A DNA stretch of 64,000 nt from assembly GCA_023898465.1 (NCBI GenBank), contig CP060223.1:32001-96000 (forward strand), in the 5' to 3' direction. The notes under the pieces are model-generated. The model ran no database searches, was not told the DNA's origin, and worked only from the letters and a program-made list of their open reading frames with translations. Source of the DNA: Candidatus Nomurabacteria bacterium (lineage in GTDB: Bacteria; Patescibacteriota; Patescibacteriia; HK-STAS-PATE-3). The stretch's first letter is position 1; each line of letters starts with the position of its first letter. Positions 35,855-64,000 of this stretch are shown here, piece after piece. Position numbers and translations under genes: made by a program.

Positions 35855-37282
35855 CGAGATAAGATAGGGTAAAAATCCTTTTTGGGTTTGAAAAAACTCA
35901 GAGTGTTTTGTTGTTGACGAAATGATGAAAATATATCAAAATAAAACGGTAGTTTAACTTTTCTTTACTGAAAGAAAAAGGGGGATTTGGCTTGAAGATT
36001 AGCCAAGGAAAGAAAAAACAGGACTGGAAGGCTAGAAAAAAGAGAAAGTCAGGAAGATTCAGCCTTTTCAGTAATTTTTTTCAGAAAAATCGACGTCGTC
36101 AGACTAAACTGGAGCAACCCCACAGCTTAAAGCCTGGGGCTGTTTTATTGCAGCTTTTTAGACAGACGCGACGTTACCGGGCTCAACAGCTTGTCTCTAT
36201 TAGTCTGGCAATTGTTTTGCTCTTGGCTTTTGGTTTTCAAATGTTTGTTGTAGCGGCGCCACCTGAAACTGCTTTTACGACGGTAAGCTCCGATGCTGAA
36301 TGGAATATGGGCACGCTTGAAGATGTCACTGTGAATAGTGGCAGCATTGAAATTTCTGGAGACGGGGGAGCTGGCTGGTTGAGTGGATGGCAAAATAGGC
36401 AGCCGGTCACAATTACCAATACCGGTTCAGCGCAGACAAACTATCAAGTAAGAGTTGATGTTACCTATGATGCCAAAATGCAGGCGGATTTTGATGATTT
36501 ACGTTTTGCAAAAGCTGATGGCACTGAGCTGGACTTTTGGCTGCAATCTAAAGTTGATTCTACCTCAGCCGTTGTTTGGGTGGAGGTGGATTCTTTGGCT
36601 GGATCGGGCGATACGGTGATCTACATGTATTACAATAATTCTGGCGCTTCGAGTACATCGGACGGAGCGGCGACTTTTCCTCTCTTTGATGATTTCAATG
36701 ATGCAAGTATAGACACGGGTAAATGGGTAGAAGTTGATCCCAGCTCAAAAATTGATGAATCAGCCGGATCGCTCCGTTTCCTTTACGGGTCTGGTAGTGG
36801 AGCATGGAATGCAAGTGTGTATGGCGTCACTTCTTTTACGCGGGCGGATTGGAGTTTTGAGTGGGATCAAACTTGGATTAGCGATTATAATCCATATGAC
36901 GCCTTCATGTTTGGCTGGAAAGATGATGGCGGAGCGGTAAGTTACACAAATCTCGTGTATGGCTACTACAATAGTGGGTCGGGTTTTTGTACAACGAACT
37001 GTACAGGGAATGTGTATGAAGATGGGAATAGTCGGGGAAATGCTGGAGTATGGGACAAAGATGTAACGTATAATCTGCGGGTTCGCATGCGAAGTGCTGG
37101 CGGAGCTTACTATGAAAAGAGTACAAACAATGGGGGATCATGGACAACCGATTATACAAGCACCTATTCAACTGAGGCTTCTCTTCATCCAGCCTGGATG
37201 CATTACGCAGGTGATTATTTGATTGATAATGTGCGGGTACGTAAATGGATGGCAAGCGAGCCAAGTCTTGTCTTTGGCACCG

Positions 37283-39380
37283 AAGAATCCGCCCTCCAAT
37301 CACCTGGGACCTACACCTCCCACAACCTTGATCTCCAGTATATCTACCAATGGGGAGACTGTGCCTCTGGCTGTAATGACTCTTCCACTGCCTTCACTAC
37401 CAACATCACGGTTCCCAGTAACACCTCAGTCCAGTTTGAACTCCGCCATTCAGCTGACGGCTCCACCAACTGGTCATCATGGACATCCCTGGCTACCTAC
37501 ACTACCTCTGGTACCAAAACGCTCACCCGAGGAGACCTAGTGGGTCTCATTGGTGATATCTTCAATCGTTATGTCCAAACTCGGATTACGCTGACCTCCT
37601 CAGATGGGAGTAGTAATCCTTCCATCGCTGACTACCGCTACGACTACACCAGAGAAACTGATCCGCCCAGTAATCCCAACACGCAGAATGGCTATGCCTC
37701 GAATGGAGGAGCAGCCATTACTTCAGGTAATTGGTACAACCATCCAGCTCCCTACTTCACCTGGAGTGGCGCCAGTGACACTGATGCTGGTATGTCCGGA
37801 GGCTACTCCGGCTACTGGGTCTGCTTTGGCACCTCATCCTGTGAACCTACCTCTGGTACCTTTGTGTCTTCCGCTGCCTACACGGCTGGGAGTCTCACTA
37901 CCAATACGACCTACTACCTCCGCATCAAAGCGAGAGATGCTGCCGGCAATGTGGCCACCTCAGCCTACGATGCCTTTACCTACAAATACGACGCCACCCC
38001 ACCAGCCAATCCCTCTGGTATCCTGCCTGATCCGGCTGGCTTTACCAATGTGAATGACTTTGACTTCACCTGGAATACCGGCTCCGATGCGGGTGGCTCT
38101 GGTATTGCTGAATACTGCTACAAGACCGGAGAAGATGGCTATGTCGAAACCTGTACCGCCTCCACCTCAGTCACGGGTATTACTGCCTACCAAGAAGGAG
38201 CCAATATCTTTTACGTGAGAAGTAAAGATATCGCTGGCAACCTCCCCACCTTCTACACCCAGGTCTCTTACTACTACTCTGCCAATGCGCCTTCACCACC
38301 GCAAGGACTCGAGGTGGACCCCACAGAGAACACGGCCAACTCCTTTACCTTTACCTGGCTACTTCCCGCCTCCTACTCCAATCCGATTGCCACCTACCAT
38401 TACTCGGTAAATGCCTTACCCACGGCAAGTAACACGACCGCAACGACCAACCTCAGTGTCGGTCCTGGTGCCTTTGCCACCCAACAAGGCACGAACATCT
38501 TCTATGTCGTCGCCAAAGACACCGCTGGCAACGTGGAATGGGACTCCTACGCTGCAGTTGAGTTCACCGCCAATACCACTGCTCCAGGTATTCCAACTGG
38601 TGTGACCCTGACAGACTCATCCATTCGGGCCCAGAACAAGTATTCCCTCACCCTCACCTGGGATGCTCCAGAGAACGAAGGCTCAGGTATTGATCACTAC
38701 GTCATTGACCGCTCAACCACTATCGGCTGCAGTGATGGTTCAGGTACCTGGGTCCAGCATGCCACCACCACCGCTGAAGGCTACTTTGATCCGAATCTTT
38801 CCAATACCACGACCTACTGCTACCGCGTGAAGGCAGCCGACAATGCCGGAGCCCAATCCGCCACCTCCTCTATTGTCTCCATGCGTCCAGAAGGCCGCTT
38901 CACTGAACCTCCAGAACTCATTGGCTCCCCAGGGGTTGAAGCCTACATCCAGTCGGCGACCGTCGAGTGGCTGACTGATCGCGAAGGCAGCTCCTTTGTG
39001 GAGTTTGGCACGTCCTCAGATACTCTTGATCGTGTCATGGGCCAAGACGACTTTGTGACCAGTCACAGTGTCACCCTCCTCGACCTTGATCCGGCTACTA
39101 CCTACTACTATCGTACGAAATACACTGACCAAGACAGTAATACCGGCTATTCTTCAGTCCTCTCCTTTACCACTGCTGATGCACCGTCAGCTCCGACCAA
39201 CCTCAGTGTGGACCCAGAGAGTAATACCCGAAACTCCTTTACCTTTGCCTGGGATCCCCCCAGTGATGCTGGAGTCACTATTCAAGGCTACTTCTACAGT
39301 GTGAATGATGTCCCCACCAGTACGAATACCTCCTTCACTGCTCAGCAAGAGCTTGGCCCTGGCGCATATGCCACGAGACA
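37283..39380 (+). repeat. about 2-kb shared stalk module, copy in P2
   Basis: Near-identical at the nucleotide level to 42287-43969 (P3) and 47464-49410 (P4). From 37990 it also matches 53300-54700 (P5). Encodes ESALQSPGTYTSHNLDLQYIYQWGDCASGCND... through ...APSAPTNLSVDPESNTRNSFTFAWDPPSDAG. Confidence 0.85.
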
Positions 39381-40311
39381 AGGGAGAACGTCTTCTACCT
39401 TGTCGCTATTGATGAAGGAACAATGTGAACTACGACAACTATGCTGCAGTCGCTTTCACTGCCACGACCCCCGCTCCTGCCATCCCCACCGGCCTCATCA
39501 TTACCGATGCCTCGAACCGAGAAACTGAAGACTACTCTATTGCCTTGAAGTGGAAAGCAGTGACCACTGAACAAGCCGGTAGCCTGGAAGATGACGCGGT
39601 GACCTACGAGATTCTCCGTTCCACTGATGGAGACAGCTTCTCCACCGTGGCCAACATTACCTCGACTGGCTACCTGGACGTCGATCTCGACAATACGACG
39701 GAGTATTACTACCAAGTGAAAGCCAAAGACTCCGCCGGCGCTGCTTCAGCTCCTTCGACCACCGTCTCAGATATCCCTGAGGGGAGATATACCACTCCAC
39801 CGGAGATTACCAAAGCCCCCCACGTTACTCCTTCCAGCTTCTCAGCCAAGGTAGAGTGGAGTACTGGACGGCCAACTACCTCCTTTGTTCAATTTGGCAC
39901 TAACCCCGCCTCATTAACAGAAGAGCAGGGTACTTCAAACCTTATCGCTGACCACGAGGTAACCATTGAGGGTTTGCAGCCTGAAACTACGTATTCATAT
40001 AGAGTAAAAAGTGTTGATGTGGATGGAAACATTTCACATTCAAGTGTTGCTACATTTACCACCCAGGCTGCTCCACGTGTTTCAAATGTAGGCATCAGCG
40101 ACGTACGTTTATTTGATGCTCTCATTAGCTGGGAAACAAATAAAGCGACCACAACTTCACTTGAGTATGGCACCACCACGAACTATGGTACAACGGTGAG
40201 CGATGCAACAGGATCAACTACCACATCTCATTTATATAAGTTAGAGAATTTGCAAGATGACACGCTCTACCATCTTCGTTTCCGTGGCGTTGATGCAGAA
40301 GGGACGCAAGT

Positions 40312-40999
40312 TAGTTCCGACGACTACACCTTCACCACCCTGACTTTCCCCCGGGTCGAGAACATCACCTGGGCTAATCAAGCCGAAGGCGAGACCGAAG
40401 TGCAATGGACTACGAATGTCCCCACCACCTCCCAAGTGGAATATTACAACGAAACTACTCCAGCCAAGACCCAAGGTAATACGGTCCTGACCACGGAACA
40501 CTCCGTCCTCCTCTTTGGCCTCGACGATGCCACCATTTACCAATTCCAAGTCCGAGGCACTGACCAATTTGGCTACGAAGCCATCTCAGATGAGCAAGAG
40601 TTCCGTACCCTGGAAGATACTACCCCTCCAGTCGTGAGTAATGTGCAGGTAGAGTCCAATACCATTGGCTCAGGTGAGCTCTCTCGTGTGCAGATCATTG
40701 TCCGCTGGACCACCAATGAGCCTACCTCTTCTCAAGTCCGCTTTGGTGAAGGAAATAACCTTTCCTCTGAATCAGATGTGAACCCAGAGTTAGTCTATGA
40801 TCACCTCCTTGTCGTCTCAGACCTAGAACCAGCGAGAACCTACAATATTCAAGCTATTGCCGTCGACAAAGCAGGGAATAGTACTGACTCTGATACCTAC
40901 CGAGTGCTTACCACCCGTCGGAGAGATTCCTTCCTCCAACTGGTCATTGGCAACCTGGAAGACACCTTTGCCTGGTTTACTAATATTGGAGGACTCTGA
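40312..40999 (+). repeat. about 0.7-kb conserved C-terminal module (TLTFPRVENITWANQAEGETEVQWTTN...RRRDSFLQLVIGNLEDTFAWFTNIGGL), copy 1 of 4
   Basis: Near-identical DNA at 45306-45998, 50505-51180 and 55635-56318. The P1 version (35195-35854) is conserved only at protein level. Confidence 0.85.
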
Positions 41000-42245
41000 T
41001 GGCACGGACGATGAAACATTGGCATAGAGGTGCAAAGAAGCGACCAGCTCATCCAGCAACACGTACGAGCTATCGTCGAAAATATCGCCAGCAAGTAGGT
41101 ATCTCGATTGCGGTGTTTTCACTTTTCCTACTCACTATCTCGTCATTTATCCAGGCAGCCGCACCAGAAGCCACCTACGTTGAAGTAACTTCAGACGCGG
41201 ACTGGAACATGGGCACCTTGAGCGATGTTACGGTGAATAGTGGGAGTATTGAAATCTCTGGAGATGGGGGAGCAAACTGGATAGCAGAATCAGGATGGCA
41301 ATTGCGGCAAAAGATTACCTTTGATGCTTCTACGCTCACGACATCTCTGAGTTATTTTCCCATCATGGTGCATATTGATAATACAAATACGGATTTTTGG
41401 GCAGGAGCGGCAAGTCGTGACGAAGTACGCTTCGGTGATAGCGATGGTGCCGTTTTAGATTTTCATTTTGAAAAATTTGATCATACTGCCGATGATGCCA
41501 TTGCCTGGGTTGAAGTGCCAACGCTAACTAATGATTCTTCTGATCACATATATCTCTATTATGGACACGCTTCACCAGCTAACGGTGAAGATGAAGCGGG
41601 CACCTATGATAATGACGGAAATTTTGTTGGCGTTTGGCACATGGCAGAGACAAGTGGTACGTCATATGATTCTACAAGTAATAACGTTGACCTCACTCCT
41701 CGCAATGCACCAACCCAAGATGAAACTGGCAAGGTAAATGGAGGAGATGGCTTCACAGGAAACGGCGACGCGCTCCATAATCAAACGTCAAGTATCGTAT
41801 TTGGAAATAGTATTACTCTAGAAGGTTGGTTTAAGCGAACCGGATCCGGTACTGGGTCCGGAAGAATTTTAGAATTTTCCCTGGATGGCGACGCTGATAG
41901 CCACGCCTTAGCCGTCGATTCAGACGGTTCACTTCGAGCCTGGGTGCAATGTACGACTGGTCGAGTTGGCAGCGCTGATGATCCTACTGTATATGGTACA
42001 GGAACTTGGTATTACTTCGCTTACACCTATGACGGATCGATTGGTCGACTTTATGTGAATGGTGTTCAGAAAAAAACTGCAAGTGGATCTTGTGCAAATT
42101 TAGATGATGCAGGGGACACTATTCTTGGAGCAATTTCTGACCAGAGCGGTGCTTACTCCCTGCCGCAACATGAATTTGATGGATATTTAGATGAACATCG
42201 TGCTTCTGATGTAGCTCGATCAGCTGATTGGATTAAAGCTGCTTA

Positions 42246-43969
42246 TCTCTCCGAAACCGACACCCTCATCTCGACCTGGGGAAGTGAAGAATCCGCCCTC
42301 CAATCACCTGGCACTTACACCTCCCACAACCTTGATCTCCAGTATATCTACCAATGGGGAGACTGTGCCTCTGGCTGTAATGACTCTTCCACTGCCTTCA
42401 CTACCAACATCACGGTTCCCAGTAACACCTCAGTTCAGTTTGAACTCCGCCATTCAGCTGACGGCTCCACCAACTGGTCATCATGGACATCCCTGGCCAC
42501 CTACACCTCCTCTGGTACCAAAACGCTCACCCGAGGAGAGATGGTCACCCTCGTAGGCGATATCTTCAATCGTTATGTCCAAACCAGAATTACCCTCAGC
42601 TCCTCAGATGGCAGTAGTAATCCTTCCATCGCTGACTACCGCTACGACTACACCAGAGAAACTGATCCCCCCAGTAATCCCAACACCCAGAATGGCTATG
42701 CCTCGAATGGAGGAGCAGCCATTACTTCAGGTAATTGGTACAACCATCCTGCTCCCTACTTCACCTGGAGTGGAGCCAGTGATACTGATGCTGGTATGTC
42801 CGGAGGCTACTCCGGCTACTGGGTCTGCTTTGGCACCTCATCCTGTGAACCTACCTCTGGTACCTTTGTGTCTTCCGCTGCCTACACGGCTGGGAGTCTC
42901 ACTACCAATACGACCTACTACCTCCGCATCAAAGCGAGAGATGCTGCCGGCAATGTGGCCACCTCAGCCTACGATGCCTTTACCTACAAATACGACGCCA
43001 CCCCACCAGCCAATCCCTCTGGTATCCTGCCTGATCCGGCTGGCTTTACCAATGTGAATGACTTTGACTTCACCTGGAATACCGGCTCCGATGCGGGTGG
43101 CTCTGGTATTGCTGAATACTGCTACAAGACCGGAGAAGACGGCTATGTCGAAACCTGTACCGCCTCCACCTCAGTCACGGGTATTACTGCCTACCAAGAA
43201 GGAGCCAATATCTTTTACGTGAGAAGTAAAGATATCGCTGGCAACCTTCCCACCTTCTACACCCAGGTGTCCTACTACTACTCGGCCAATGCTCCTTCAC
43301 CACCGCAGGGACTTGCGGTTGATCCGACCGAGAACACGGCGAACTCCTTTACCTTTACCTGGCTTGCTCCCGCCTCCTACTCCAACCCGATTGCCACCTA
43401 CCATTACTCGGTGAATGCCTTACCCACGGCAAGTAACACGACCGCAACGACCAACCTCAGTGTCGGTCCTGGTGCCTTTGCCACCCAACAAGGCACGAAC
43501 ATCTTCTATGTCGTCGCCAAAGACACCGCTGGCAACGTGGAATGGGACTCCTACGCTGCAGTTGAGTTCACCGCCAATACCACTGCTCCAGGTATTCCAA
43601 CTGGTGTGACCCTGACCGACTCATCCATTCGGGCCCAGAACAAGTATTCCCTCACCCTCACCTGGGATGCTCCAGAGAACGAAGGCTCAGGTATTGATCA
43701 CTACGTCATTGACCGCTCAACCACTATCGGCTGCAGTGATGGTTCAGGTACCTGGGTCCAGCATGCCACCACCACCGCTGAAGGCTACTTTGATCCGAAT
43801 CTTTCCAATACCACCACCTACTGCTACCGCGTGAAGGCAGCCGACAATGCCGGAGCCCAATCCGCCACCTCCTCTATTGTCTCCATGCGTCCAGAAGGCC
43901 GCTTCACTGAACCCCCAGAACTCATTGGTTCCCCAGGGGTTGAAGCCTACATCCAGTCGGCGACTATTG
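42246..43969 (+). repeat. shared stalk module, copy in P3
   Basis: Identity to the P4 copy begins about 40 nt further upstream (ctctccgaaaccgacaccctcatctcgacctgggg) than identity to P2. It diverges from P2/P4 after 43969 into an AT-richer version of the same protein domains. Confidence 0.85.
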
Positions 43970-45305
43970 AATGGTTAACAGATCGTGAGGCGAATTCATT
44001 TGTTGAATTCGGAGTAGCGTCTGACACTTTGGACCGAATTATGGGACAGGACGATTTCGTTTCCTCGCATACAGTACAATTATTGGATCTAGAGCCTGCC
44101 ACAACATATTATTATCGAACCAAGCATACTGATCAGGATAGCAATACTGGTTACTCTACAATTTTGTCATTTTCAACGGCGGACGCCCTCTGCTCCAACA
44201 AATTTGACCGTGAGCCCAGAAAGCAACACACGCAATTCATTTACTTTTTCATGGGATGCGCCAAGTGATGAAGGAGTAGATGCAGGGATATTTCTACAGT
44301 ATTAATGACGTGCCAACTAGTACAAACACTTCCTTCACTACGCAAACTGAATTAGGTCCAGGTGCATATGCTAGCCGGCAGGGTGAAAATGTGTTTTATG
44401 TAGTAGCGATCGATGATGCAAATAATATTAATTATAGTAATTACGCAAGTATTTCATTTAGTGCTGAAACCCCCGCTCCTGCCATCCCCACCGGCCTCAT
44501 CATTACCGATGCCTCGAACCGAGAAACTGAAGACTACTCTATTGCCTTGAAGTGGAAAGCAGTGACCACTGAACAAGCCGGTAGCCTGGAAGATGATGCG
44601 GTGACCTACGAGATTCTCCGTTCCACTGATGGAGACAGCTTCTCCACCGTGGCCAACATTACCTCGACTGGCTACCTGGATGTCGATCTCGACAATACGA
44701 CGGAGTATTACTACCAAGTGAAAGCCAAAGACTCCGCCGGCGCTGCTTCAGCTCCTTCGACCACCGTCTCAGATATCCCTGAGGGGAGATATACCACTCC
44801 ACCGGAGATTACCAAAGCCCCCCACGTTACTCCTTCCAGCTTCTCAGCCAAGGTAGAGTGGAGTACTGACCGTGATGCTGATTCCCACGTAGAATATGGC
44901 AGCACCTCAGATCTCACTGAAGAGCAAGGGACGATTGATGAAACTGATGAACATAGCATCCAACTCGAAGGACTCCAACCAGAAACGACCTATTACTACC
45001 GCATTCGTTCACGTGACCAAGATGGCAATGTAGCCCTCTCGAGCATCACTACCTTTACTACCTTGGAGGCACCGAGGGTGTCAAACGTAAAGATAAGCGA
45101 CATTCGTTTATTTGATGCTTTTCTTACTTGGGATACGAATGTTGCTTTAACTACTGAACTTGAGTATGGCATTTCTACAAATTACGGAACCATTGTGAGT
45201 GATGCCACAGCCTCAAGAACAACCAGCCACACGGTAAGACTGCAAAACCTCACTGATGGTACACTTTACCACTTACGTTTACGAGGAACAGATAGTGAAG
45301 GAAAC

Positions 45306-45998
45306 TTACTTTTGTCCGACGACTACACCTTCACCACCCTGACCTTCCCCCGGGTCGAGAACATCACCTGGGCTAATCAAGCCGAAGGCGAGACCGAAGT
45401 GCAATGGACTACGAATGTCCCCACCACCTCCCAAGTGGAATATTACAACGAAACGACTCCAGCCAAGACCCAAGGTAATACGGTCCTGACCACGGAACAC
45501 TCCGTCCTCTCCTCTTTGGCCTCGACGATGCCACCATTTACCAATTCAAGTCCGAGGTACTGACCAATTTGGCTACGAAGCCATCTCAGATGAGCAAGAG
45601 TTCCGTACCCTGGAAGATACTACCCCTCAGTCGTGAGTAATGTGCAGGTAGAGTCCAATACCATTGGCTCAGGTGAGCTCTCTCGTGTGCAGATCATTGT
45701 CCGCTGGACCACCAATGAGCCTACCTCTTCCCAAGTCCGCTTTGGTGAAGGAAATAGCCTTTCCTCTGAATCAGATGTGAACCCAGAGTTAGTCTATGAT
45801 CACCTCCTTGTCGTCTCAGACCTAGAACCAGCGAGAACCTACAATATTCAGGCTATTGCCGTTGACAAAGCAGGGAATAGTACTGACTCTGATACCTACC
45901 GAGTGCTTACCACCCGTCGGAGAGATTCCTTCCTCCAACTGGTCATTGGCAACCTGGAAGACACCTTTGCCTGGTTTACCAATATTGGGGGGTTGTAG
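45306..45998 (+). repeat. conserved C-terminal module, copy 2 (carries indels)
   Basis: tccgtcctctcctctttgg has 2 extra nt relative to the other copies. caattcaagtcc and tacccctcagtcgtg each lack one C. Confidence 0.8.
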
Positions 45999-47423
45999 CA
46001 TAGAGAAAGTTGAAGAAGTTTTAGGAATTTCCTGATTTGACTAAATCAAGGAAAAATTTTACAATATAACAACAAAAAATAATTTTAATTTGCGAAATTA
46101 AGGATTTTGGCTTGAAGATTAGCCAAAAAATTTTTTTCGGGGAAGAGAAAAAGAGCCAAGGCTCAAATATCTCAAGCACGAAAAAAACAAGACTTCAAAG
46201 CTATCTAACTGGTAGCATGCTTCATAGAAAAGAAAAAAACCAGGCAACTCTGCGCGTGGTTTTTTTGTGCTGACAAAAAAATATCGCCTGCAGTCAGTCA
46301 TCTCGGTAATGCTTGCCATTACTTTAGGTTTCGGCATTTTTTGCAGTTTAATGCAATTGCCGCTCCACCAGAAGCCACTTACATTGAAGTAACTTCAGAC
46401 GCAGACTGGAACATGGGCACCTTTTGAGCGATGTTACAGTGAATAGCGGGAGTATTGAGATCTCCGGAGATGGGGGAGCGAACTGGATAGCAGAGTCTGG
46501 CTGGCAATTCAGACAGCAATTGACCTTTGATGCATCTTCATTAAGTGCTCCAGTCGCCAATATGCCGATTATGGTGCATATCAGTGCATCCAACACTGAC
46601 TACTGGGGCGAAGTGACCTCAAGAGATGAAACCCGTTTCGGCGATAGCGATGGTACGGCTTTAGACTTTCATTTTGAGAAATTTGATGATGCCAATGATG
46701 ATGCGATTGCCTGGGTAGAAGTGCCTCAGGTTGATAATGCTGATACCGACTCCATCTATCTTTACTATGGAAATGATGCGGCAACGAATGGTGAAGATGG
46801 GGCGGGCACCTATGATAATGATGGGAATTTTCAGGGTGTATGGCACATGAATAATGCAACCAGCACCACAATCAGCGATAGTACTGGACATGGTTATACC
46901 GGTACAAAGGGTGCGAGCACGGCTGCCCCAACTCAGGTCAACGGACAAATTGGTTATGCACAATCTTTCGACGGCGGTGACTATATTGATTTTGGCAACG
47001 TTCTTAATCCAGGAAGTAATGATTGGACTGTAGAAATTTGGTTTAAAACAACTTCAAATGGGAGTCCTAGTTCACGAATTCTCTATAATAAAGAGAATTT
47101 GTACGAGGCTGCGGCAGCCGGAAGTTCTTACCACGACTACGCCTGGCAGCCGCACTGGGCTTGGGATGGAGGAACTGCTTTTTCCGTTACAAATAATGTT
47201 TGGCATTTGTCTGGGACGACATACGATAAGTCCAAGCAACGTTTATATAAGAATGGTGTCCTTGTGTACAACCGGGACCAGGGTGGCGTCATGGGGACAA
47301 CCACTTCACGCTTACAATTTGGCGCCCGAGGAGATACTGGGCACTCATCTTTTTATATTGGAGAGATTGATGAAGTGCGCATGTCGAGTACGGCTCGGAG
47401 CGCAGACTGGTTAGCCTTAGCGC

Positions 47424-49410
47424 ATCTCTCCGAAACCGACACCCTCATCTCGACCTGGGGAAGTGAAGAATCCGCCCTCCAATCACCTGGCACTTACACC
47501 TCCCACAACCTTGATCTCCAGTATATCTACCAATGGGGAGACTGTGCCTCTGGCTGTAATGACTCTTCCACTGCCTTCACTACCAACATCACGGTTCCCA
47601 GTAACACCTCAGTTCAGTTTGAACTCCGCCATTCAGCTGACGGCTCCACCAACTGGTCATCATGGACATCCCTGGCCACCTACACCTCCTCTGGTACCAA
47701 AACGCTCACCCGAGGAGAGATGGTCACCCTCGTAGGCGATATCTTCAATCGTTATGTCCAAACCAGAATTACCCTCAGCTCCTCAGATGGCAGTAGTAAT
47801 CCTTCCATCGCTGACTACCGCTACGACTACACCAGAGAAACTGATCCGCCCAGTAATCCCAACACCCAGAATGGCTATGCCTCGAATGGAGGAGCAGCCA
47901 TTACTTCAGGTAATTGGTACAACCATCCAGCTCCCTACTTCACCTGGAGTGGCGCCAGTGATACTGATGCTGGTATGTCCGGAGGCTACTCCGGCTACTG
48001 GGTCTGCTTTGGCACCTCATCCTGTGAACCTACCTCTGGTACCTTTGTGTCTTCCGCTGCCTACACGGCTGGGAGTCTCACTACCAATACGACCTACTAC
48101 CTCCGCATCAAAGCGAGAGATGCTGCCGGCAATGTGGCCACCTCAGCCTACGATGCCTTTACCTACAAATACGACGCCACCCCACCAGCCAATCCCTCTG
48201 GTATCCTGCCTGATCCGGCTGGCTTTACCAATGTGAATGACTTTGACTTCACCTGGAATACCGGCTCCGATGCGGGTGGCTCTGGTATTGCTGAATACTG
48301 CTACAAGACCGGAGAAGACGGCTATGTCGAAACCTGTACCGCCTCCACCTCAGTCACGGGTATTACTGCCTACCAAGAAGGAGCCAATATCTTTTACGTG
48401 AGAAGTAAAGATATCGCTGGCAACCTTCCCACCTTCTACACTCAGGTGTCCTACTACTACTCGGCCAATGCCCCTTCACCACCCCAGGGACTTGCGGTTG
48501 ATCCTACCGAGAACACGGCGAACTCCTTTACCTTTACCTGGCTACTTCCCGCCTCCTACTCCAACCCGATTGCCACCTACCACTACTCGGTGAATGCCTT
48601 ACCCACGGCAAGTAACACGACCGCAACGACCAACCTCAGTGTCGGTCCTGGTGCCTTTGCCACCCAACAAGGCACGAACATCTTCTATGTCGTCGCCAAA
48701 GACACGGCTGGCAACGTGGAATGGGACTCCTACGCTGCAGTTGAGTTCACTGCCAATACCACTGCTCCAGGTATTCCAACTGGTGTGACCCTGACCGACT
48801 CATCCATTCGGGCCCAGAACAAGTATTCCCTCACCCTCACCTGGGATGCTCCAGAGAACGAAGGCTCAGGTATTGATCACTACGTCATTGACCGCTCAAC
48901 CACTATCGGCTGCAGTGATGGTTCAGGTACCTGGGTCCAGCATGCCACCACCACCGCTGAAGGCTACTTTGATCCGAATCTTTCCAATACCACCACCTAC
49001 TGCTACCGCGTGAAGGCAGCCGACAATGCCGGAGCCCAATCCGCCACCTCCTCTATTGTCTCCATGCGTCCAGAAGGCCGCTTCACTGAACCCCCAGAAC
49101 TCATTGGTTCCCCAGGGGTTGAAGCCTACATCCAGTCGGCCACCGTCGAGTGGCTGACTGATCGCGAAGGCAGCTCCTTTGTGGAGTTTGGCACGTCCTC
49201 AGATACTCTTGATCGTGTCATGGGCCAAGATGACTTTGTGACCAGTCACAGCGTCACCCTCCTCGACCTTGATCCGGCTACTACCTACTACTATCGTACG
49301 AAATACACTGACCAAGACAGTAATACCGGCTATTCTTCAGTCCTCTCCTTTACCACTGCTGATGCACCGTCAGCTCCGACCAACCTCAGTGTGGACCCAG
49401 AGAGTAATAC
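47424..49410 (+). repeat. shared stalk module, copy in P4
   Basis: Near-identical to the P2 and P3 copies, with scattered synonymous differences (for example ccagc/ccggc). Confidence 0.85.
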
Positions 49411-50504
49411 CCAGAAACTCCTTTACCTTTGCCTGGGATCCCCCAGTGATGCTGGAGTCACTATTCAAGGCTACTTCTACAGTGTGAATGATGTCCCCCA
49501 CCAGTACGAATACCTCCCTTCACTGCTCAGCAAGAGCTTGGCCCTGGCGCATATGCCACGAGACAAGGGAGAACGTCTTCTACCTTGTCGCTATTGATGA
49601 AGCGAACAATGTGAACTACGACAACTATGCTGCAGTCGCTTTCACTGCCACGACCCCTGCTCCTGCCATCCCCACCGGCCTCATCATTACCGATGCCTCG
49701 AACCGAGAAACTGAAGACTACTCTATTGCCTTGAAGTGGAAAGCAGTGACCACTGAACAAGCCGGTAGCCTGGAAGATGATGCGGTGACCTACGAGATTC
49801 TCCGTTCCACTGATGGAGACAGCTTCTCCACCGTGGCCAACATTACCTCGACTGGCTACCTGGATGTCGATCTCGACAATACGACGGAGTATTACTACCA
49901 AGTGAAAGCCAAAGACTCCGCCGGCGCTGCTTCAGCTCCTTCGACCACCGTCTCAGATATCCCTGAGGGAGATATACCACTCCACCGGAGATTACCAAAG
50001 CCCCCACGTTACTCCTTCCAGCTTCTCAGCCAAGGTAGAGTGGAGTACTGACCGTGATGCTGATTCCCACGTAGAATATGGCAGCACCTCAGATCTCACT
50101 GAAGAGCAAGGGACGATTGATGAAACTGATGAACATAGCATCCAACTCGAAGGACTCCAACCAGAAACGACCTATTACTACCGTATTCGTTCACGTGACC
50201 AAGATGGCAATGTAGCCCTCTCGAGCATCACTACCTTTACTACCTTGGAGGCACCGAGGGTGTCGGATGTGGTCATTTCTGATATCAAACTTTACGATGC
50301 GCTTATTGCGTGGAAAACAAACAAGGCAACAACAACGGTTTTGGAATATGGTACGACTGAGCAATACGGCCAAAGTCTCGCAGATACTTCTGGGTCCCTT
50401 ACCACGAACCATATTGTGAAGCTTGATAGCTTAACCGATGATACACTGTATCATTTCCGTCCTACTGGTTTCGACGAGAGCGGGAATGCTCCAGAGAGTA
50501 GCGA

Positions 50505-51180
50505 CTACACCTTCACCACCCTGACCTTCCCCCGGGTCGAGAACATCACCTGGGCTAATCAAGCCGAAGGCGAGACCGAAGTGCAATGGACTACCAATGT
50601 CCCCACCACCTCCCAAGTGGAATACTACAACGAAACTACTCCAGCCAAGACCCAAGGTAATACGGTCCTGACCACGGAACACTCCGTCCTTCTCTTTGGC
50701 CTCGACGATGCCACCATTTACCAATTCCAAGTCCGAGGCACTGACCAATTTGGCTACGAAGCCATCTCAGATGAGCAAGAGTTCCGTACCCTGGAAGATA
50801 CTACCCCCCCAGTCGTGAGTAATGTGCAGGTAGAGTCCAATACCATTGGCTCAGGTGAGCTCTCTCGTGTGCAGATCATTGTCCGCTGGACCACCAATGA
50901 GCCTACCTCTTCCCAAGTCCGCTTTGGTGAAGGAAATAACCTTTCCTCTGAATCAGATGTGAACCCAGAGTTAGTCTATGATCACCTCCTTGTCGTCTCA
51001 GACCTAGAACCAGCGAGAACCTACAATATTCAGGCTATTGCCGTTGACAAAGCAGGGAATAGTACTGACTCTGATACCTACCGAGTGCTTACCACCCGTC
51101 GGAGAGATTCCTTCCTCCAACTGGTCATTGGCAACCTGGAAGACACCTTTGCCTGGTTTACCAATATTGGGGGGTTGTGA
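50505..51180 (+). repeat. conserved C-terminal module, copy 3
   Basis: Intact frame; 99 % identical to copies 1 and 4. Confidence 0.85.
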
Positions 51181-54100
51181 TGAGTCGACGGATGCGACAT
51201 TTTAGCGTAGGACATAAAGGATTAACTCCGAGAGTAAGTCGGAAAAACTCACGTCATTCAAAATTATCACGATATAAGTCAAGATATCACGTTCAAGTTA
51301 TTCTCACCTTGACGGTTCTTGTTTTTGCTTCAGTGTTTGGGGTAGCTATTCCATACCTACAAGCGGTTCCAACAAATAATACCGAGACCTTTACGCTGAG
51401 TAGCGATTTTAGTGGAGGGGTATTAACTGATGTTGATGTGAGTAATGACGAAATTAAACTGTCTGGAGGAGCGGAAAATTGGTGGGACGCAAACTATCAA
51501 TATCGTCGACAACTTACGGTTACAAATGATTCTGCTGGAACTGCTGAAGTAGGCACAACAGCTACCATCAGCATTGATACTTCGGCGCTTGAGACAGCAG
51601 GGAAGTTGCGTTCAGATCGTAATGACTGGCGAGTAGTATATTGGAACGGCTCGAGTAATGAAGAGCTTGATCGTGTCTACGAAAGTACTAGTTCGACTGT
51701 TTTTGCTATTCAGGCCACTATCGCGGGAAGTGGTGGATCAAGTAGTGATTATTATGTGTACTACGGGTACTCAAGTGAGTCCTCAACTCCGCCAAGTACG
51801 GTGGGTAACGTAAAGACGGTACTCAGCATGCATACAACCGCTAACCAAGTTTTAACAAGTGGAGTTACAAACCTTGGTATTGCTACTGACGGTGACTACG
51901 TTTACATGTCAAATGGGTCTCAGTTATCAAAACTTAACCTTGATGGGTCATTAGTTGGCACTAAGACAGTGAGTATTGGTGGTGCAAATAGAGGACTCGG
52001 TTTTGCTGATGGACGGGTTATTGGTCGAGACTTAAGTAATAATCTTTATGCGTATGACTGGGATAGCTCAACATTATCTCCATTGAGTATTCCAGGTGGA
52101 CATCCACTTTTATCAGGTCAATCCTGGATGAATCATAATCTTGTGACTGATTCGAGCGATCGGATTGGTACCGTGCAGTATGCATCTGGCGGTATGATTC
52201 TGCGTCGCTACACTATTAGTGGTAACACGCTCACTTGGTTAGATGATATCACCCTAGGTGGAACCTATCACTCAGTAGATAATCATGGCTTTACTATGAG
52301 CAACGACTATCTCGTAATGGTGAGTTATAGTGATGGATGGCGACGATGGAGCTTGCCTGATGGTACAGAGGAAGTTGACTTTGGGAATTTTGGCGGGACT
52401 GGTACAAATACTGAAACTCACCCTAGTGGGATGTCGAATCCAACTTTTATTGATTATAACTGGAAGACCGGGGAAATATATCTTGGTGACTATAGTTCAG
52501 CTGAGTATTTTCGATATGCTAATGAAGCTTTAGTTACTTCTCCTACTTTATCTGTTACTGATGGAGGTGAAGTTGGATCACTTACTCCTATTGGTACCTT
52601 TGCTTCAAATCAAACTGATACAGGGGATGACGCATTTATAAATCTTGCTCGCATCTTTGCCTGGGGGAGTGGTGGCGGTGATAGTGATACAGCATTTACC
52701 GCAAACGTAACGATGAGCGATCCTTCTCATTCGACACTTAGCTTTGAGCTACGTAGTGCTTCATCTATTGCTAATCTAGCGTCAGCAACATATTACTCAC
52801 TTGGCTCGCCAACGAGCTCTGGTGCATATACGCTGACCAAAGGACAGATGGATGCTTTAAATAGTGGAAGCGGGGTTTTACCCTCCAGTGTGAATAAGTA
52901 TTTTCAGTTACGCATTTCATTTACCTCAAGTGATGGCTTAGCCAACCCTTCAGTGCAGGATTTTGCTTTTCATTATCAGGAAGACAACGACGCCCCATCA
53001 CCACCATCGCCGGTTAACGGAGCTGGGTATGATGAAGAGGGTGGAGATGTCATCTCTCAAACTACCTGGTATAACTACCCAACTCCATACTTTACTTGGG
53101 ATGATGCCATAGATGGAGATTCTAGTATTGATGGGTATTATGTTTGCTTTGGAACTAGCAGTTGCGATCCAAGCGCTGGTTCCTATGTGACTACTGCAGA
53201 GTATACTGCAGTGTCGTTAACAAGCAATCAAAAGTATTCTTTACGAGTGAAGGCTCGTGACACTGCTGGGAATGTTTCTGCAACCTTCTCGGTATTTGAA
53301 TATTGGTACGACGCCACCCCACCAGCCAATCCCTCTGGTATCCTGCCTGATCCGGCTGGCTTTACCAATGTGAATGACTTTGACTTCACCTGGAATACCG
53401 GCTCCGATGCGGGTGGCTCTGGTATTGCTGAATACTGCTACAAGACCGGAGAAGATGGCTATGTCGAAACCTGTACCGCCTCCACCTCAGTCACGGGTAT
53501 TACTGCCTACCAAGAAGGAGCCAATATCTTTTACGTGAGAAGTAAAGATATCGCTGGCAACCTCCCCACCTTCTACACCCAGGTCTCTTACTACTACTCT
53601 GCCAATGCGCCTTCACCACCGCAAGGACTCGAGGTGGACCCCACAGAGAACACGGCCAACTCCTTTACCTTTACCTGGCTACTTCCCGCCTCCTACTCCA
53701 ATCCGATTGCCACCTACCATTACTCGGTAAATGCCTTACCCACGGCAAGTAACACGACCGCAACGACCAACCTCAGTGTCGGTCCTGGTGCCTTTGCCAC
53801 CCAACAAGGCACGAACATCTTCTATGTCGTCGCCAAAGACACGGCTGGCAACGTGGAATGGGACTCCTACGCTGCAGTTGAGTTCACCGCCAATACCACT
53901 GCTCCAGGTATTCCAACTGGTGTGACCCTGACAGACTCATCCATTCGGGCCCAGAACAAGTATTCCCTCACCCTCACCTGGGATGCTCCAGAGAACGAAG
54001 GCTCAGGTATTGATCACTACGTCATTGACCGCTCAACCACTATCGGCTGCAGTGATGGTTCAGGTACCTGGGTCCAGCATGCCACCACCACCGCTGAAGG

Positions 54101-56318: not shown

Positions 56319-56367
56319 GAATTCTTTAATCTATGGTATAGTATTCAAGTAAAAAATACAGACCGAC

Positions 56368-57090
56368 ATGGCTGAGCAAAGCAGAAAAAAACCGATTATC
56401 GAACTCAAAAATATTATCAAAGAATTCCGAGTGGGGAAGAATACGATTCGTGTCCTTAAAGATATTAACGCACGAATTGAACCACAGGAGTTTATCATTA
56501 TTCTCGGACCATCTGGATCAGGAAAGTCGACGCTTTTGAATACCATAATTGGTTTAGAGCGCCCCACCTCCGGTCAAGTTTTGGTTGCGAATGAAGATCT
56601 CACTACACTCAGCTCTGATAAGTTGGCAGCTTTTCGTTTACAGAATTACGGCGTGGTATACCAGCGTCCTGACTGGATAAAAGCTTTGAATATCGTACAA
56701 AATGTAGCCTTTCCTTTAGCTATTGCAAATCATTCCATGACAGAAGCAATTCCTAAGGCAATCGAACTTCTAAAGCGCTTTGGTATGGACGATCATGCTG
56801 AATATGCGCCAAGCGAACTCTCTGGTGGACAACAACAGAAGTGCGAAATTGCTCGATCCTTAATAATGGATCCAGACATTGTTATTGCTGACGAGCCTAC
56901 AGGAAACCTGGATACTGATTCAGCTGAGCGCGTGATGAATATATTTACCGAATTGCGAGAAAAGGATAAGAAAACTGTAATCATGGTTACTCATAACATT
57001 GAATATGTTCGCTATGCGACCCATACTATTTATGTACGAGATGGTCGTGTATTAGAAGGTGAACAATCATTCGGCACAAAGAAGAAGTAG
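56368..57090 (+). CDS. ABC transporter ATP-binding protein, MacB/LolD/FtsE-like
   Basis: Walker A GPSGSGKST, ABC signature LSGGQQQK, Walker B IVIADEPTGNLD and H-loop VTHN. Confidence 0.9.
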   Translation: MAEQSRKKPIIELKNIIKEFRVGKNTIRVLKDINARIEPQEFIIILGPSGSGKSTLLNTIIGLERPTSGQVLVANEDLTTLSSDKLAAFRLQNYGVVYQRPDWIKALNIVQNVAFPLAIANHSMTEAIPKAIELLKRFGMDDHAEYAPSELSGGQQQKCEIARSLIMDPDIVIADEPTGNLDTDSAERVMNIFTELREKDKKTVIMVTHNIEYVRYATHTIYVRDGRVLEGEQSFGTKKK

Positions 57091-57093
57091 AGT

Positions 57094-58314
57094 ATGAAGT
57101 TTAGCTATATTGCTTTTCTCTCAACACAAAATTTGCGCAAACGTAAGCTGCGTAGCTTTTTGACAATTGGAGGTATGGCAATCGGTATCAGCTCAATTGT
57201 TTTCTTGGTTTCGCTTGGTTTTGGCTTACAGCGCCTCATTACCTCACAGGTAACTAATCTGGAAGCGCTTACCATACTTGATGTAAGTACCGGCACCTCA
57301 ACCTTGCTACAAATTGATGATGATCGCATTGCTGGCTTTAAAGAGATTCCTCACGTGCTTGATGTAAGTCCCTCGTACAGTATTTCTGGTCAGGTAGCCT
57401 ATACCGGGTCAGTCACTGATATTGCCATGTTTGGCATTCAACCGGAGTATGTAGGGCTAGAAGGTATAACACCGGCTTTTGGTCGAGTTTTTTCAATCCC
57501 TGATGGCAATGAAACAGTTATTAGCACTACGGCAGCTGAATTGCTTGGTGTTGAGGACTTTGCTTCTTTAATTGGCAAAACAGTTACGTATAGCGTTTCA
57601 GTAGAGCAAACGACTGATGAGAATGGCGCACCACTTGATCCAAATCTACCCCCACCGGCCCCTGAAGTAGTTGATTTTGATGTGGAGGTCATTGGAGTCG
57701 TGGATGATGAATTAACTCTAGCGTATTTACCTATTAGCATCTTGGAAATTACGCAACCAGAAAATTATGATTTAGCGCGCGTAAAAGTAGATAATAGAGA
57801 TAATCTGGTCGGTGTCCGCCAAGAAATTGAAGGGCTAGGGTATCAAGTTGATTCAGTGGCTGATACTGTTGGTCAGATTGATCGTATCTTCCTGGTCTTT
57901 GAAATAGTCATGGCTGGATTTGGCTTTATTGCCATGTTGGTCGCATCCTTGGGCGCATTTAACACCTTAACCGTTTCTTTACTTGAACGTACGCGTGAAG
58001 TAGGAATCATGAAGGCGTTAGGCACACCGAGTAAGGATGTGTACCGACTTTTCTTGAGCGAGTCATTTTTGATTGGATTTTCAGGTGGAAGCTTGGGAAT
58101 ATTAATAGGATATTCCTTAGGTGAAATTGCCAACGTGGTAGTAAATTATTTGGCGAATCGTTATGGTGGTCAATCAGTTGATATTTTCTTCACTCCATTT
58201 TTGCTCATTGTTGTCATTTTCTCAATTATCGTGTTGGTGAGTTTCTTGACTGGTGTTTATCCTGCTCGTCGTGCGTCTAAACTCAATCCTTTGGACGCTC
58301 TGCGCTACGAATAA
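57094..58314 (+). CDS. ABC transporter permease, FtsX-like (MacB-type: N-terminal TM, periplasmic domain, three C-terminal TM helices)
   Basis: LRSFLTIGGMAIGISSIVFLVSLG N-terminal TM and a C-terminal FtsX domain (...RTREVGIMKALGTPSKDVYRLFLSESFLIGF...). The ATG is 4 nt after the ATPase stop. Confidence 0.85.
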   Translation: MKFSYIAFLSTQNLRKRKLRSFLTIGGMAIGISSIVFLVSLGFGLQRLITSQVTNLEALTILDVSTGTSTLLQIDDDRIAGFKEIPHVLDVSPSYSISGQVAYTGSVTDIAMFGIQPEYVGLEGITPAFGRVFSIPDGNETVISTTAAELLGVEDFASLIGKTVTYSVSVEQTTDENGAPLDPNLPPPAPEVVDFDVEVIGVVDDELTLAYLPISILEITQPENYDLARVKVDNRDNLVGVRQEIEGLGYQVDSVADTVGQIDRIFLVFEIVMAGFGFIAMLVASLGAFNTLTVSLLERTREVGIMKALGTPSKDVYRLFLSESFLIGFSGGSLGILIGYSLGEIANVVVNYLANRYGGQSVDIFFTPFLLIVVIFSIIVLVSFLTGVYPARRASKLNPLDALRYE

Positions 58315-58333
58315 TTTTTCCAAAAACGAATAA

Positions 58334-58368
58334 ACGAAAACGGACGCATGTAATTGCTTCCGTTTTCG
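58334..58368. terminator. bidirectional rho-independent terminator (10-bp stem cgaaaacgga/tccgttttcg)
   Basis: cgaaaacggacgcatgtaattgcttccgttttcg, with flanking A-run and T-run. Confidence 0.6.
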
Positions 58369-58379
58369 TATCTATCAGG

Positions 58380-58490
58380 TTAGGCGTTCTCGCCACCAGC
58401 CTCACCCATATCAGCGTCACCAGCGTTTTCTTCTGTGGTTTCGCCACCTTCCATTGGAGTCTGGTTCTCTTCTCCGTCGAATTTGAACAT
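58380..58490 (-). CDS. 36-aa highly acidic Gly/Glu/Asp-rich peptide
   Basis: Perfect SD aaaggaggtgattgc before the ATG on the minus strand. Product is MFKFDGEENQTPMEGGETTEENAGDADMGEAGGENA. Terminates into the bidirectional terminator. Confidence 0.4.
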   Translation of the reverse strand: MFKFDGEENQTPMEGGETTEENAGDADMGEAGGENA

Positions 58491-58660
58491 GCAATCACCT
58501 CCTTTCAATTGATGTGATTTCACGTAGGGTCTAGTGTACGTGTCTGAGAACGTATTGTCTAGACTCTGTCAACCCCATACCACATTGGGTATAGGGTTGT
58601 ATCGCGCACCGATTCTGGTGCGAGGTCAACCCTTCGCGAGTGAACAAAAAAGACTTTCTG

Positions 58661-59761: not shown

Positions 59762-59856
59762 TACCTTCTAGGATGGAGACATGCAACGCACGGGGGGACT
59801 GTGCGTGTTTGGAACGTTGACATGCTATAAGGATGTTGATCCGGGAGTGAAGAGTC

Positions 59857-60957: not shown

Positions 60958-61002
60958 TCAAGCACACTGTTCATTCACGTCCCGCCTCAAGTGAGGATCA
61001 CT

Positions 61003-61964: not shown

Positions 61965-62062
61965 TCTTTTTTCGTCTTCGTAAATCAGAAGGGGTCTCAC
62001 ACAGAGGCTCTTTCTGTTTTTTATATGCTATGGTATACTTTTTCGGTAAATATATTAGGGGG

Positions 62063-63962: not shown

Positions 63963-64000
63963 TATGGAATCTACGCAATCAACAACTTTTACAAGCAAAT

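Follow-up and report, generated by a model that had tools for sequence, protein, structure and literature searches.

Simple-sequence repeats such as poly-G and poly-C tracts, typically of about 7-8 nt or more, make surface-protein genes phase-variable in contingency loci, for example those of Neisseria, Haemophilus, and Campylobacter. Decaying paralogs and silent cassettes in tandem surface-protein arrays are ordinary bacterial pseudogenes, and bacterial mutation spectra contain several substitutions per indel. Indel errors in the repeats of hybrid Nanopore and Illumina assemblies are a polishing failure of the Unicycler/Pilon type, which the repeat-aware Polypolish was written to fix; 1-2-nt indels outside homopolymers are ordinary in Nanopore consensus.

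We analysed a 64,000-nt window of HK-STAS-PATE-3, a MAG of an uncultured, ultra-small bacterium (Patescibacteria, class ABY1, UBA10025). The genome, one circular contig of 1,082,586 bp with a GC content of 0.470 (Liu et al. 2021 supplement, PMC8518188), was assembled with Flye, then read recruitment, then Unicycler v0.4.8-beta from PromethION (Nanopore) reads of 86.7% accuracy and 2x150 Illumina reads (PRJNA648801). The window contains a tandem array of five genes (P1-P5), in which P2, P3, and P4 are frameshifted.

Like contingency loci, the array encodes surface proteins, has multiple paralogs, and shows frameshifts at homopolymers; in contrast to them, its shifts are many, some lie outside repeats, and the net frame is not zero. 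Like decaying tandem paralogs, P2-P5 form a mosaic with some broken frames, but P2-P4 carry no nonsense mutations or large deletions and show no signature of relaxed selection. The repeat errors of hybrid assemblies share with P2-P4 the data type and the software, and the indels here are likewise small, homopolymer-biased, and confined to where short-read contigs cannot cross, with perfect flanks and a clean P5 beside near-identical siblings that carry the changes. Unlike such errors, five events in P3 and P4 are in copy-specific stretches, which should be within reach of ordinary polishing, and a 1.1-kb tract present in four copies is error-free. The sequence comparisons below suggest, with a probability that we put at about 70%, that most or all of the frameshifts are residual Nanopore indel errors of the hybrid assembly and not the state of the organism's DNA.

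Results

The five-gene array and its frame-breaking indels

The genes, a nearly identical tract, and the indels are listed in Table 1. Domain assignments for P2-P5 are Pfam matches. P5 is identical (100%) to GenBank USN53612.1, which begins at a slightly later start, and was taken as the intact reference. The array is a mosaic of tandem paralogs exchanging sequence by gene conversion, and each of the broken copies is full-length, with a start codon and TM anchor of its own. The main ORF pieces of P4 are 46424-49597, 49488-50051, and 50245-51180.

Table 1. Genes, shared tract, and frame-breaking indels of the array (window positions).
Feature	Position	Strand	Description
P1	27332-35854	+	Intact single ORF, 2840-aa giant surface protein; unique at DNA level
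P2	35992-40999	+	TM anchor + DUF2341 + fn3/PAP_N repeats; ORFs of 1178 aa and 524 aa
P3	40999-45998	+	TM anchor + DUF2341 + LamG + fn3/PAP_N repeats; ORFs of 1089, 427, and 121 aa
P4	46112-51180	+	TM anchor + DUF2341 + LamG + fn3/PAP_N repeats; at least 6 ORF pieces
P5	51177-56318	+	Intact, 1713 aa
710-bp tract	P2 39100-39810; P4 49283-49995; P5 54421-55100	+	Identical except for indels and three P3/P4-type SNPs
P2 indel 1	39382-39384	+	G3 vs G4 in P5, context AAGGGGAGAA; same change in P4 49567-49569
P2 indel 2	between 39417-39418	+	One C absent, GAAG-GAAC vs GAAGCGAAC in P4/P5; non-homopolymer
P3 indel 1	44186-44188	+	2 nt missing in C-run: GAC GCCC TCT, expected Ala-Pro GCN CCN; frame 1->2
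P3 indel 2	~44279-44282	+	2 nt missing (GTA G.. ATG CAG); frame 2->0
P3 indel 3	45507-45508	+	+CT in short CT/TC microrepeat (GTCCTCTCCTC)
P3 indel 4	45546-45547	+	CC->C; AATTCAAG vs AATTCCAAG in other copies
P3 indel 5	45627-45628	+	CC->C; CCCCTCAGT vs CCCCTCCAGT in other copies
P4 5' shift 1	46260-46281	+	Frame 2->1 near T7 (46260-46266) / A7 (46275-46281); exact base not assignable; +1 repair restores frame
P4 5' shift 2	46337-46342	+	T6, would read through as T7 (GIFLQFNAIAAPPEA); frame 1->0
P4 5' shift 3	46422-46425	+	TTTT vs TT in P3 (CACCTTTTGAGCG); frame 0->2; TGA stop created
P4 module indel	49413	+	+A; ACCCAGAAAC vs ACCCGAAAC in P2/P5
P4 module indel	49440-49444	+	C6->C5 (GATCCCCCAGTG)
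P4 module indel	49495-49499	+	C4->C5 (GTCCCCCACCAG)
P4 module indel	49516-49518	+	CC->CCC (ACCTCCCTTC)
P4 module indel	49567-49569	+	G4->G3; site and context identical to P2 39382-39384
P4 module indel	49967-49969	+	G4->G3 (TGAGGGAGAT), GGGGAGA context
P4 module indel	50001-50005	+	C6->C5 (AAAGCCCCCACG)

Four-way MAFFT alignment of the modules, alignment of the P3 and P4 5' ends, and three-frame translations placed 17 frame-breaking indels, mostly at short homopolymers: two in P2 (net shift -2), five in P3, and ten in P4 (net shift -1). The frame of P3 returns after 45628, its indels 3-5 totalling 0, while the P4 5' end holds at least three events with the frame course 2->1->0->2. At the last of these, the alternative alleles over 46416-46433 are GGCACCTTTTGAGCGATG and GGCACCTTGAGCGATG. 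An earlier note on this DNA had described P2, P3, and P4 as broken and P1 and P5 as intact, and this was confirmed, as was every event that it had listed; its two P4 G3 sites are real, although their coordinates (49575 and 49978) were off by about 8-10 nt. The concentration at G/C homopolymers that it had reported also holds: seven of the 12 module events fall at G/C runs of intact length 4 or more, which make up 2.1% of module bases (binomial P ~1e-9). Its location of the events inside the repeated modules is correct for these 12, but the other five lie in copy-specific sequence, namely P3 indels 1 and 2, which fall in a unique 31-mer node of 564 nt (43935-44498), and the P4 5' shifts, all three of which fall in one of 1,487 nt (45967-47453).

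Restoring one G and one C in P2 yielded an ORF of 1669 aa, five repairs in P3 one of 1667 aa, and ten in P4 one of 1689 aa, each with 0 stops. Since repair at these 17 sites restores single ORFs in all three genes, the list of lesions is complete. The architecture of P2-P5 is that of the giant DUF2341/LamG/fn3/PAP_N proteins of Patescibacteria (PF10102, PF13385, PF00041, PF16656). Approximately 130 relatives were found at E<=1e-20, mostly in Patescibacteria MAGs; the closest show 56-64% identity, cover the whole query, and are single ORFs of 1,577-1,693 aa, and in one relative (L007) the genes are also in tandem. Once the frames are repaired, nothing in P2-P5 is unusual among these proteins. 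From domain content alone, we infer a putative adhesin role.

Mutation spectrum and distribution of the indels

The mutation spectrum of P2-P4 does not fit gene decay. Nonsense substitutions were absent from the three genes, against 17 small indels, and private substitutions in tracts of at least 97% identity comprised one nonsynonymous and 22 synonymous changes, the latter confined to third codon positions. In P4, private substitutions 3' of its 5' shifts were eight synonymous and 0 nonsynonymous. Both indels of P2 and all but one of the seven in the P4 modules are located in the 710-bp tract, the exception (50001-50005) lying just 3' of it; in pairwise comparison with P5, P2 showed 0 substitutions and two indels there, and P4 three substitutions and six indels, plus the one just beyond.

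Indels were patchily distributed, at a density of 1-2% within short stretches and 0 outside them, and in P4, 15% of the gene accounts for all ten events. The 1.1-kb tract, identical in P2-P5, has no indel in any copy, and the 3-kb repeated part of P5 shows no error. A G4->G3 change at GGGGAGA occurred three times (P2 39382, P4 49567, and P4 49967); P2 39382 and P4 49567 are the same site with the same change, whereas the two copies do not have in common the neighbouring indels at a distance of 34-52 nt. In the divergent P3 segment, differences from P5 at codon positions 1/2/3, counted in the local frame, were 15/6/62 before, 4/3/18 between, and 12/6/49 after the two shifts. This third-position pattern in each local frame indicates that the P3 shifts postdate about 34% nucleotide divergence, without relaxation of constraint.

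Comparison with Illumina-only contigs

Illumina-only Logan contigs of the same project (SRR12358676 and SRR23493594) matched the flanks at 12813-33757 and 56285-64000 without a mismatch or gap over 28,661 nt in total; the first of these segments, which reaches into P1, is 100% identical to contig L005. This unique flank includes 419 homopolymers of at least 4 nt, 58 of them of at least 6 nt, and no length variation was seen in the 419 between the independent samples compared. The contigs end exactly at 37341 and resume at 56285, where the shared 31-mers of the window start, and the length of L005 (35,072 nt) equals that of the unique 31-mer block 2270-37341. All 17 indels lie inside the 19 kb between these contig ends.

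An independent Illumina-only scaffold from another time point of the same plant (L002; Shatin sludge) is identical to the P5 region 54329-55181 and carries in-frame alleles only, with G4 at the position that reads G3 in two of the window's three identical copies. At all comparable homopolymers, no length heterogeneity was seen between independent assemblies. Exact look-ups of ORFs expected from the broken versions gave no match in Illumina-only assemblies, in which cut genes are poorly indexed.

Discussion

The short-read graph breaks at the paralogs because they have kilobase tracts in common at 97-100% identity. The 19 kb between the short-read contigs would have had to be spanned with long reads and, for want of a clean graph path, the bridge would have taken its sequence from the Nanopore consensus. 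Short-read polishing of this bridge would probably be ineffective, as reads from near-identical copies would map ambiguously or prefer the already error-free P5, and mapping to an error-prone draft may already have limited which short reads were available. We suppose that the five copy-specific events survived because the Flye draft missed these copies, so that their short reads would never have been recruited. Among the three readings offered by the earlier note, homopolymer consensus error is the best supported, but its proposed mechanism of collapsed reads is probably not exact, and an unpolishable long-read bridge fits better. The note had also taken the non-homopolymer events as a sign that some changes are real; this argument is weak, given how common such indels are in Nanopore consensus and that the substitution spectrum speaks against decay.

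Several observations run contrary to assembly error. The nodes of the five copy-specific events are places where Illumina reads should map uniquely and polishing should work, the repeated part of P5 and the four-copy tract are free of errors, and consensus error less typically produces changes of 2 nt, of which there are four.

If the assembly were faithful, three of five redundant paralogs would have been truly inactivated by slippage-type indels and would be fixed, very recent pseudogenes. Decaying copies are frequent in arrays of this kind, the assembly is flawless over the 28.7-kb flank including its 58 longer homopolymers, Illumina-based sequence should be reliable in the copy-specific nodes, and purely random error does not obviously predict an indel-free repeated part of P5 or four-copy tract. 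We nevertheless consider this unlikely, since it needs 17 independent indels with no nonsense and at most one nonsynonymous against 22 synonymous private substitutions, where dozens of substitutions would be expected from bacterial mutation spectra. It is also opposed by the intact third-position divergence of P3 across the shifts, the confinement of the P4 events, the indel common to two copies whose neighbouring indels are not, and the constant length of all 419 flank homopolymers. The same substitution spectrum speaks against the ongoing pseudogenisation that the earlier note had listed. A mixed picture, in which the five copy-specific events are real and truly inactivate P3 and P4 while the 12 multi-copy events are assembly errors, would agree with the unique placement of short reads in the two nodes; in addition, A/T runs 6-7 nt long, the most slippage-prone sequence of the locus, are unusually frequent at the P4 5' end. 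We regard it as distinctly improbable, because P3 shows no relaxation of its codon-position pattern after the first shift, the private substitutions of P4 downstream of its 5' shifts are all synonymous, and the local indel density is as patchy as in the multi-copy tracts; the failed look-ups of broken-version ORFs point the same way, weakly in view of the poor indexing of cut genes.

Slipped-strand phase variation, also put forward by the earlier note, would mean that changes in short-repeat length turn individual adhesin-like cassettes ON and OFF and that the consensus by chance shows three copies OFF. Surface-exposed, tandemly duplicated, and probably host-contacting proteins are often phase-variable, the majority of events are at homopolymers, and T7, A7, and T6 runs lie near the P4 start codon. 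However, the module tracts, of 2-6 nt, are much shorter than those typical of contingency loci, events such as the +A at 49413 and the missing C at 39417 fall outside repeats, and the comparable homopolymers were uniform between assemblies. With 2-10 independent shifts per gene and a non-zero net frame in P2 and P4, no single slip switches a gene back on. Phase variation thus appears very improbable here.

If the frameshifts are indeed errors of the hybrid assembly, the bacterium would possess five intact genes for membrane-anchored, fn3-rich proteins of approximately 1,670-2,840 aa.

Structure of the gene array

ORF calling revealed five tandem giant surface-protein genes, P1–P5, on the + strand at 27.3–56.3 kb of the window, and confirmed that P1 and P5 are intact and that P2, P3 and P4 are broken. 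P2–P5 have an N-terminal basic tail and TM helix, followed by DUF2341 and then many fn3- or Pur_ac_phosph_N-type domains; in P3 and P4, LamG occurs alongside DUF2341. Pfam matches to PF10102, PF13385, PF00041 and PF16656 were above gathering scores. Giant surface proteins of the DUF2341/LamG/fn3 type in Patescibacteria share this set, with an N-terminal TM anchor, DUF2341, optionally LamG, and repeats of fn3/Pur_ac_phosph_N. About 130 relatives were found at E ≤ 1e-20, mainly from Patescibacteria MAGs, and the closest are single proteins of 1,577–1,693 aa with 56–64% identity.

The tandem arrangement also occurs in one relative, about 62% identical (ENA ERZ28669879 ctg31160_2.90x_l, 5044–18023), in which copies of 1577 aa and 1641 aa are followed by two adjoining pieces, one of 435 aa and a cut one of 474 aa. 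The two pieces resemble a third copy that has been divided, and the split may be an artefact of the kind proposed below for P2–P4, as the contig name suggests 2.9x coverage. Directly downstream of our array lies a pair of genes for an ABC ATPase and a MacB_PCD/FtsX permease, and further downstream a gene with Host_attach/baeRF-type matches in Pfam. Elsewhere in the window, a tRNA-His gene has a tyrosine-integrase gene immediately after it and PIN-domain and TfoX_N genes just before it (about 14.8–16.5 kb); the tRNA-His/integrase region may be an integrated element.

Features of the window and frame-breaking events in P2–P4 (window coordinates)
Feature	Position	Strand	Description
tRNA-His	16746–16820
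Tyrosine-integrase gene	16846–17799	−
P1	27332–35854	+	single ORF, 2840 aa
P2	35992–40999	+	2 ORF pieces
P2 lesion	39382–39384	+	G4 to G3
P2 lesion	39417/39418	+	C missing
P3	40999–45998	+	3 ORF pieces
P3 lesion	44186–44188	+	−2 in C-run; copy-specific node
P3 lesion	~44279–44282	+	−2; copy-specific node
P3 lesion	45507–45508	+	+CT
P3 lesion	45547	+	CC to C
P3 lesion	45628	+	CC to C
P4	46112–51180	+	at least 6 ORF pieces
P4 5′ lesion	46260–46281	+	near T7/A7; frame 2 to 1
P4 5′ lesion	46337–46342	+	at T6; frame 1 to 0
P4 5′ lesion	46422–46425	+	at T4; frame 0 to 2
P4 module lesion	49413	+	+A
P4 module lesion	49440–49444	+	C6 to C5
P4 module lesion	49495–49499	+	C4 to C5
P4 module lesion	49516–49518	+	CC to CCC
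P4 module lesion	49567–49569	+	G4 to G3
P4 module lesion	49967–49969	+	G4 to G3
P4 module lesion	50001–50005	+	C6 to C5
P5	51177–56318	+	single ORF, 1713 aa
ABC ATPase and MacB_PCD/FtsX permease pair	56368–58314
Gene with Host_attach/baeRF-type Pfam matches	60991–61536

Frameshifts and their repair

Self-BLAST, a four-way MAFFT alignment of the modules common to P2–P5, an alignment of the P3 and P4 5′ ends and three-frame translations located 17 frame-breaking events, two in P2, five in P3 and ten in P4. Every lesion listed in the earlier note was reproduced, with two coordinates moved by about 10 nt. Repair of these sites alone restored uninterrupted ORFs of 1669 aa (P2), 1667 aa (P3) and 1689 aa (P4); an example of an allele pair at the copy-specific sites is GGCACCTTTTGAGCGATG (broken) versus GGCACCTTGAGCGATG (repaired). 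P2–P4 contain no further inactivating mutations, and no internal stops remain after repair. The shifts are independent (2, 5 and 10 per gene); summed, they leave P2 out of frame by −2 and P4 by −1. In P4, all ten events fall inside 15% of the gene length, at a local density of 1–2%. The bias of the indels to G/C homopolymers described in the earlier note also held, since 7 of the 12 module events lie in G/C runs of at least 4 nt, and such runs account for 2.1% of bases (P about 1e-9). The change of G4 to G3 at GGGGAGA occurs three times. Two of these changes affect one homologous position of P2 and P4, where the neighbouring indels 34–52 nt away are not common to both copies. Programmed frameshifting or an alternative genetic code was rejected, as the shifts are bidirectional, differ between near-identical copies and do not occur in P5. 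The activity of a diversity-generating retroelement was also rejected, since the changes are indels and not adenine-targeted substitutions.

Mutation spectrum and selection

The region of P2–P5 at 37282–56318 is a fine-scale gene-conversion mosaic in which the pairs with 99–100% identity change from segment to segment. In a 710-bp tract common to P2, P4 and P5, comparison with P5 gave no substitutions and 2 indels for P2, and 3 substitutions and 6 indels for P4, which has a seventh indel 5 nt past the tract. Private substitutions over all tracts of at least 97% identity comprised 22 synonymous changes, all at the third codon position, versus one nonsynonymous change, and the broken copies showed the same pattern as intact P5. 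Together with the mosaic, this ratio points to concerted evolution, with purifying selection acting strongly. The 17 indels are accompanied by 0 nonsense mutations; differences dominated by indels and biased to homopolymers, with few or no substitutions, are those expected of an assembly artefact.

A private divergent segment of P3, which is AT-richer than P5 (GC 0.44 vs 0.54), holds both −2 shifts. Its differences from P5 at codon positions 1/2/3, counted in the local frames, were 15/6/62 before, 4/3/18 between and 12/6/49 after the shifts. The third-position pattern in each local frame shows that the segment evolved as one constrained CDS through about 34% nucleotide divergence, and the shifts arose later than all of this divergence.

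Short-read contigs and provenance of the assembly

The same strain is present in Logan contigs, which are assembled from short reads only, of SRR12358676 and SRR23493594. These contigs matched the window at 12813–33757 and 56285–64000 over 28,661 nt, including 419 homopolymers of at least 4 nt, with 0 mismatches and 0 gaps. When the 31-mers of the window were mapped for uniqueness, the unique block 2270–37341 measured 35,072 nt, the size of the Logan contig, and the downstream Logan contig begins at 56285, so that the contig ends were predicted exactly. Breaks in the short-read graph thus coincide with the borders of the repeat array, and all 17 lesions lie inside 19 kb that only long reads could bridge. 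One Illumina contig ends at 37341 and the next begins at 56285; the lesions are all between these positions, but five of them are in copy-specific nodes (stretches of unique 31-mers within the array) of 564 and 1,487 nt. Analysis of 55-mer and 127-mer nodes added no information, because the indels themselves make k-mers “unique”. The boundary of the 35-kb contig at 2270 is a 32-nt direct repeat (1955–1986 and 2268–2299) that overlaps the 3′ end of tRNA-Lys (2285–2359, − strand) and resembles an att-site-type duplication of part of a tRNA gene.

The same plant, sampled at a different time point, yielded an independent scaffold assembled from Illumina reads only (L002; ENA ERZ28655665 scaffold_18052), which carries in-frame alleles only, with G4 where two of three identical window copies have G3. 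It matches the window at 54329–57203 and 44790–45330, running from P5 into about 540 nt identical to P3 and then into the P5 3′ end and the ABC gene. Its support for consensus error is modest, since it is itself chimeric: either short reads were joined wrongly across the repeats, or the array is truly arranged differently in that population. This scaffold and another independent ENA contig (L003) both stop exactly at 57203, a short way into the gene for the FtsX/MacB-like permease, where the window has no repeat; this position may be a strain-variable site or a coverage break.

Database searches were less informative. None of the three ORFs expected if the frameshifts were real (P3 43936–44268, P4 46112–46273 and P3 44280–45563) was on record by exact look-up, in which short or cut genes are poorly indexed, so that their absence is uninformative. 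Ten predicted contig-end products were likewise unmatched; they included a calibrator, the P2 N-terminus from the known 35-kb Logan contig, so this negative is uninformative too. These look-ups thus yielded no short-read contig over a broken site. The C-terminal 1003 aa of P5 had a sole match, to Woesearchaeota with 32% identity, in the genome contig collection and none in the metagenome contig collection; the organism is thus in neither. A word-indexed homologue search with the reconstructed P4 N-terminus returned distant relatives only (at most 43% identity) and missed USN53611.1 itself, to which the query is 100% identical over 347 aa and which another search returned. This search was therefore unable to reveal Illumina-derived fragments, and its negatives need caution.

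The genome, HK-STAS-PATE-3, is one circular contig of 1,082,586 bp (GC 0.470), classified as p__Patescibacteria;c__ABY1;o__UBA10025 (Liu et al. 2021, Microbiome 9:205, PMC8518188). [quoted passage not shown] Circular CPR genomes from the same plant are the product of that hybrid work (Wang et al. 2023, PMC10031880). The deposited sequence thus originates from error-prone long reads.

Origin of the frameshifts

We consider it probable (about 0.7) that the frameshifts in P2, P3 and P4 are not biological but are residual Nanopore indel errors in the hybrid assembly. Single-placement short-read polishing of the Unicycler/Pilon kind is known to leave indel errors in repeats. Patches with 1–2% of indel-only differences, lying in near-identical kilobase repeats next to an error-free sibling copy and faultless unique flanks, resemble an uncorrected Nanopore consensus. 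The earlier note had offered slipped-strand phase variation, ongoing pseudogenisation and homopolymer consensus error side by side; the indel-only spectrum and the clean flanks favour the last, and the other two are less likely. Three observations are awkward for consensus error: P5 has no indels in its repeated part, a 1.1-kb tract common to four copies has none, and five events fall in the copy-specific nodes (P3 43935–44498 and P4 45967–47453), where short reads should place uniquely. A mixture in which these five events are real appears quite unlikely. Short reads entered the workflow only if they mapped to the Flye draft, and this step may have caused copy-specific errors, since copy-specific short reads would not have reached the Unicycler run if the draft had collapsed the array.

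That P2–P4 are real, very recent pseudogenes is unlikely. For the deposited sequence, and for that sequence alone, disrupted reading frames as in pseudogenes are evident, and relaxed selection is not apparent from the 22:1 synonymous bias, the lack of stops after repair and the third-position pattern kept in P3. From established mutation spectra, a decaying gene should gain several substitutions for every indel, most of them nonsynonymous, whereas the array has 17 indels against no nonsense and one nonsynonymous change. The L002 scaffold is in-frame throughout, but follows P5/P3 sequence and is chimeric. Phase variation is the least likely reading, and we regard it as highly improbable. It requires a long simple-sequence repeat (a homopolymer of at least about 7–8 nt, or several units) in the 5′ coding region or promoter; T7, A7 and T6 runs occur at the P4 5′ end only, whereas the module tracts measure 2–6 nt and two events lie outside any repeat. 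Instead of a single ON/OFF tract, there are 2–10 shifts per gene with a non-zero net frame, and tract lengths did not differ between independent contigs wherever they were comparable. It is also very unlikely that an ultra-small episymbiont uses a slippage-type, indel-only process to silence single genes in an adhesin-like array of five, with the process acting on very short G/C runs and 5′-end A/T runs and outrunning point mutation. If true, this would be surface variation, either ON/OFF or by rapid cassette birth and death, not yet described in Patescibacteria.

Implications

The main value of this analysis is a caution about split CDSs in this GenBank record. P5 is USN53612.1 (100% identity), and the N-terminal fragments of P2, P3 and P4 are USN53606.1, USN53608.1 and USN53611.1. 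The record presents the P2–P4 fragments (USN53606.1–USN53611.1, 35992–51180) as ordinary separate proteins and not as pseudogenes or frameshifted genes; truncated products whose C-terminal tails are read out of frame, as in the 1178-aa P2 fragment, therefore stand in nr. These are open to misreading as pseudogenes, phase-variable adhesins or novel short proteins. Our study also provides a read-free triage recipe: the assembly method is identified, unique flanks are compared with short-read-only contigs, and the spectrum is tested for indel-only changes and footprints of purifying selection in the “pseudogenes”. If the lesions were real, which is unlikely, they would bear on variation of the host-contact surface in episymbiotic CPR bacteria.
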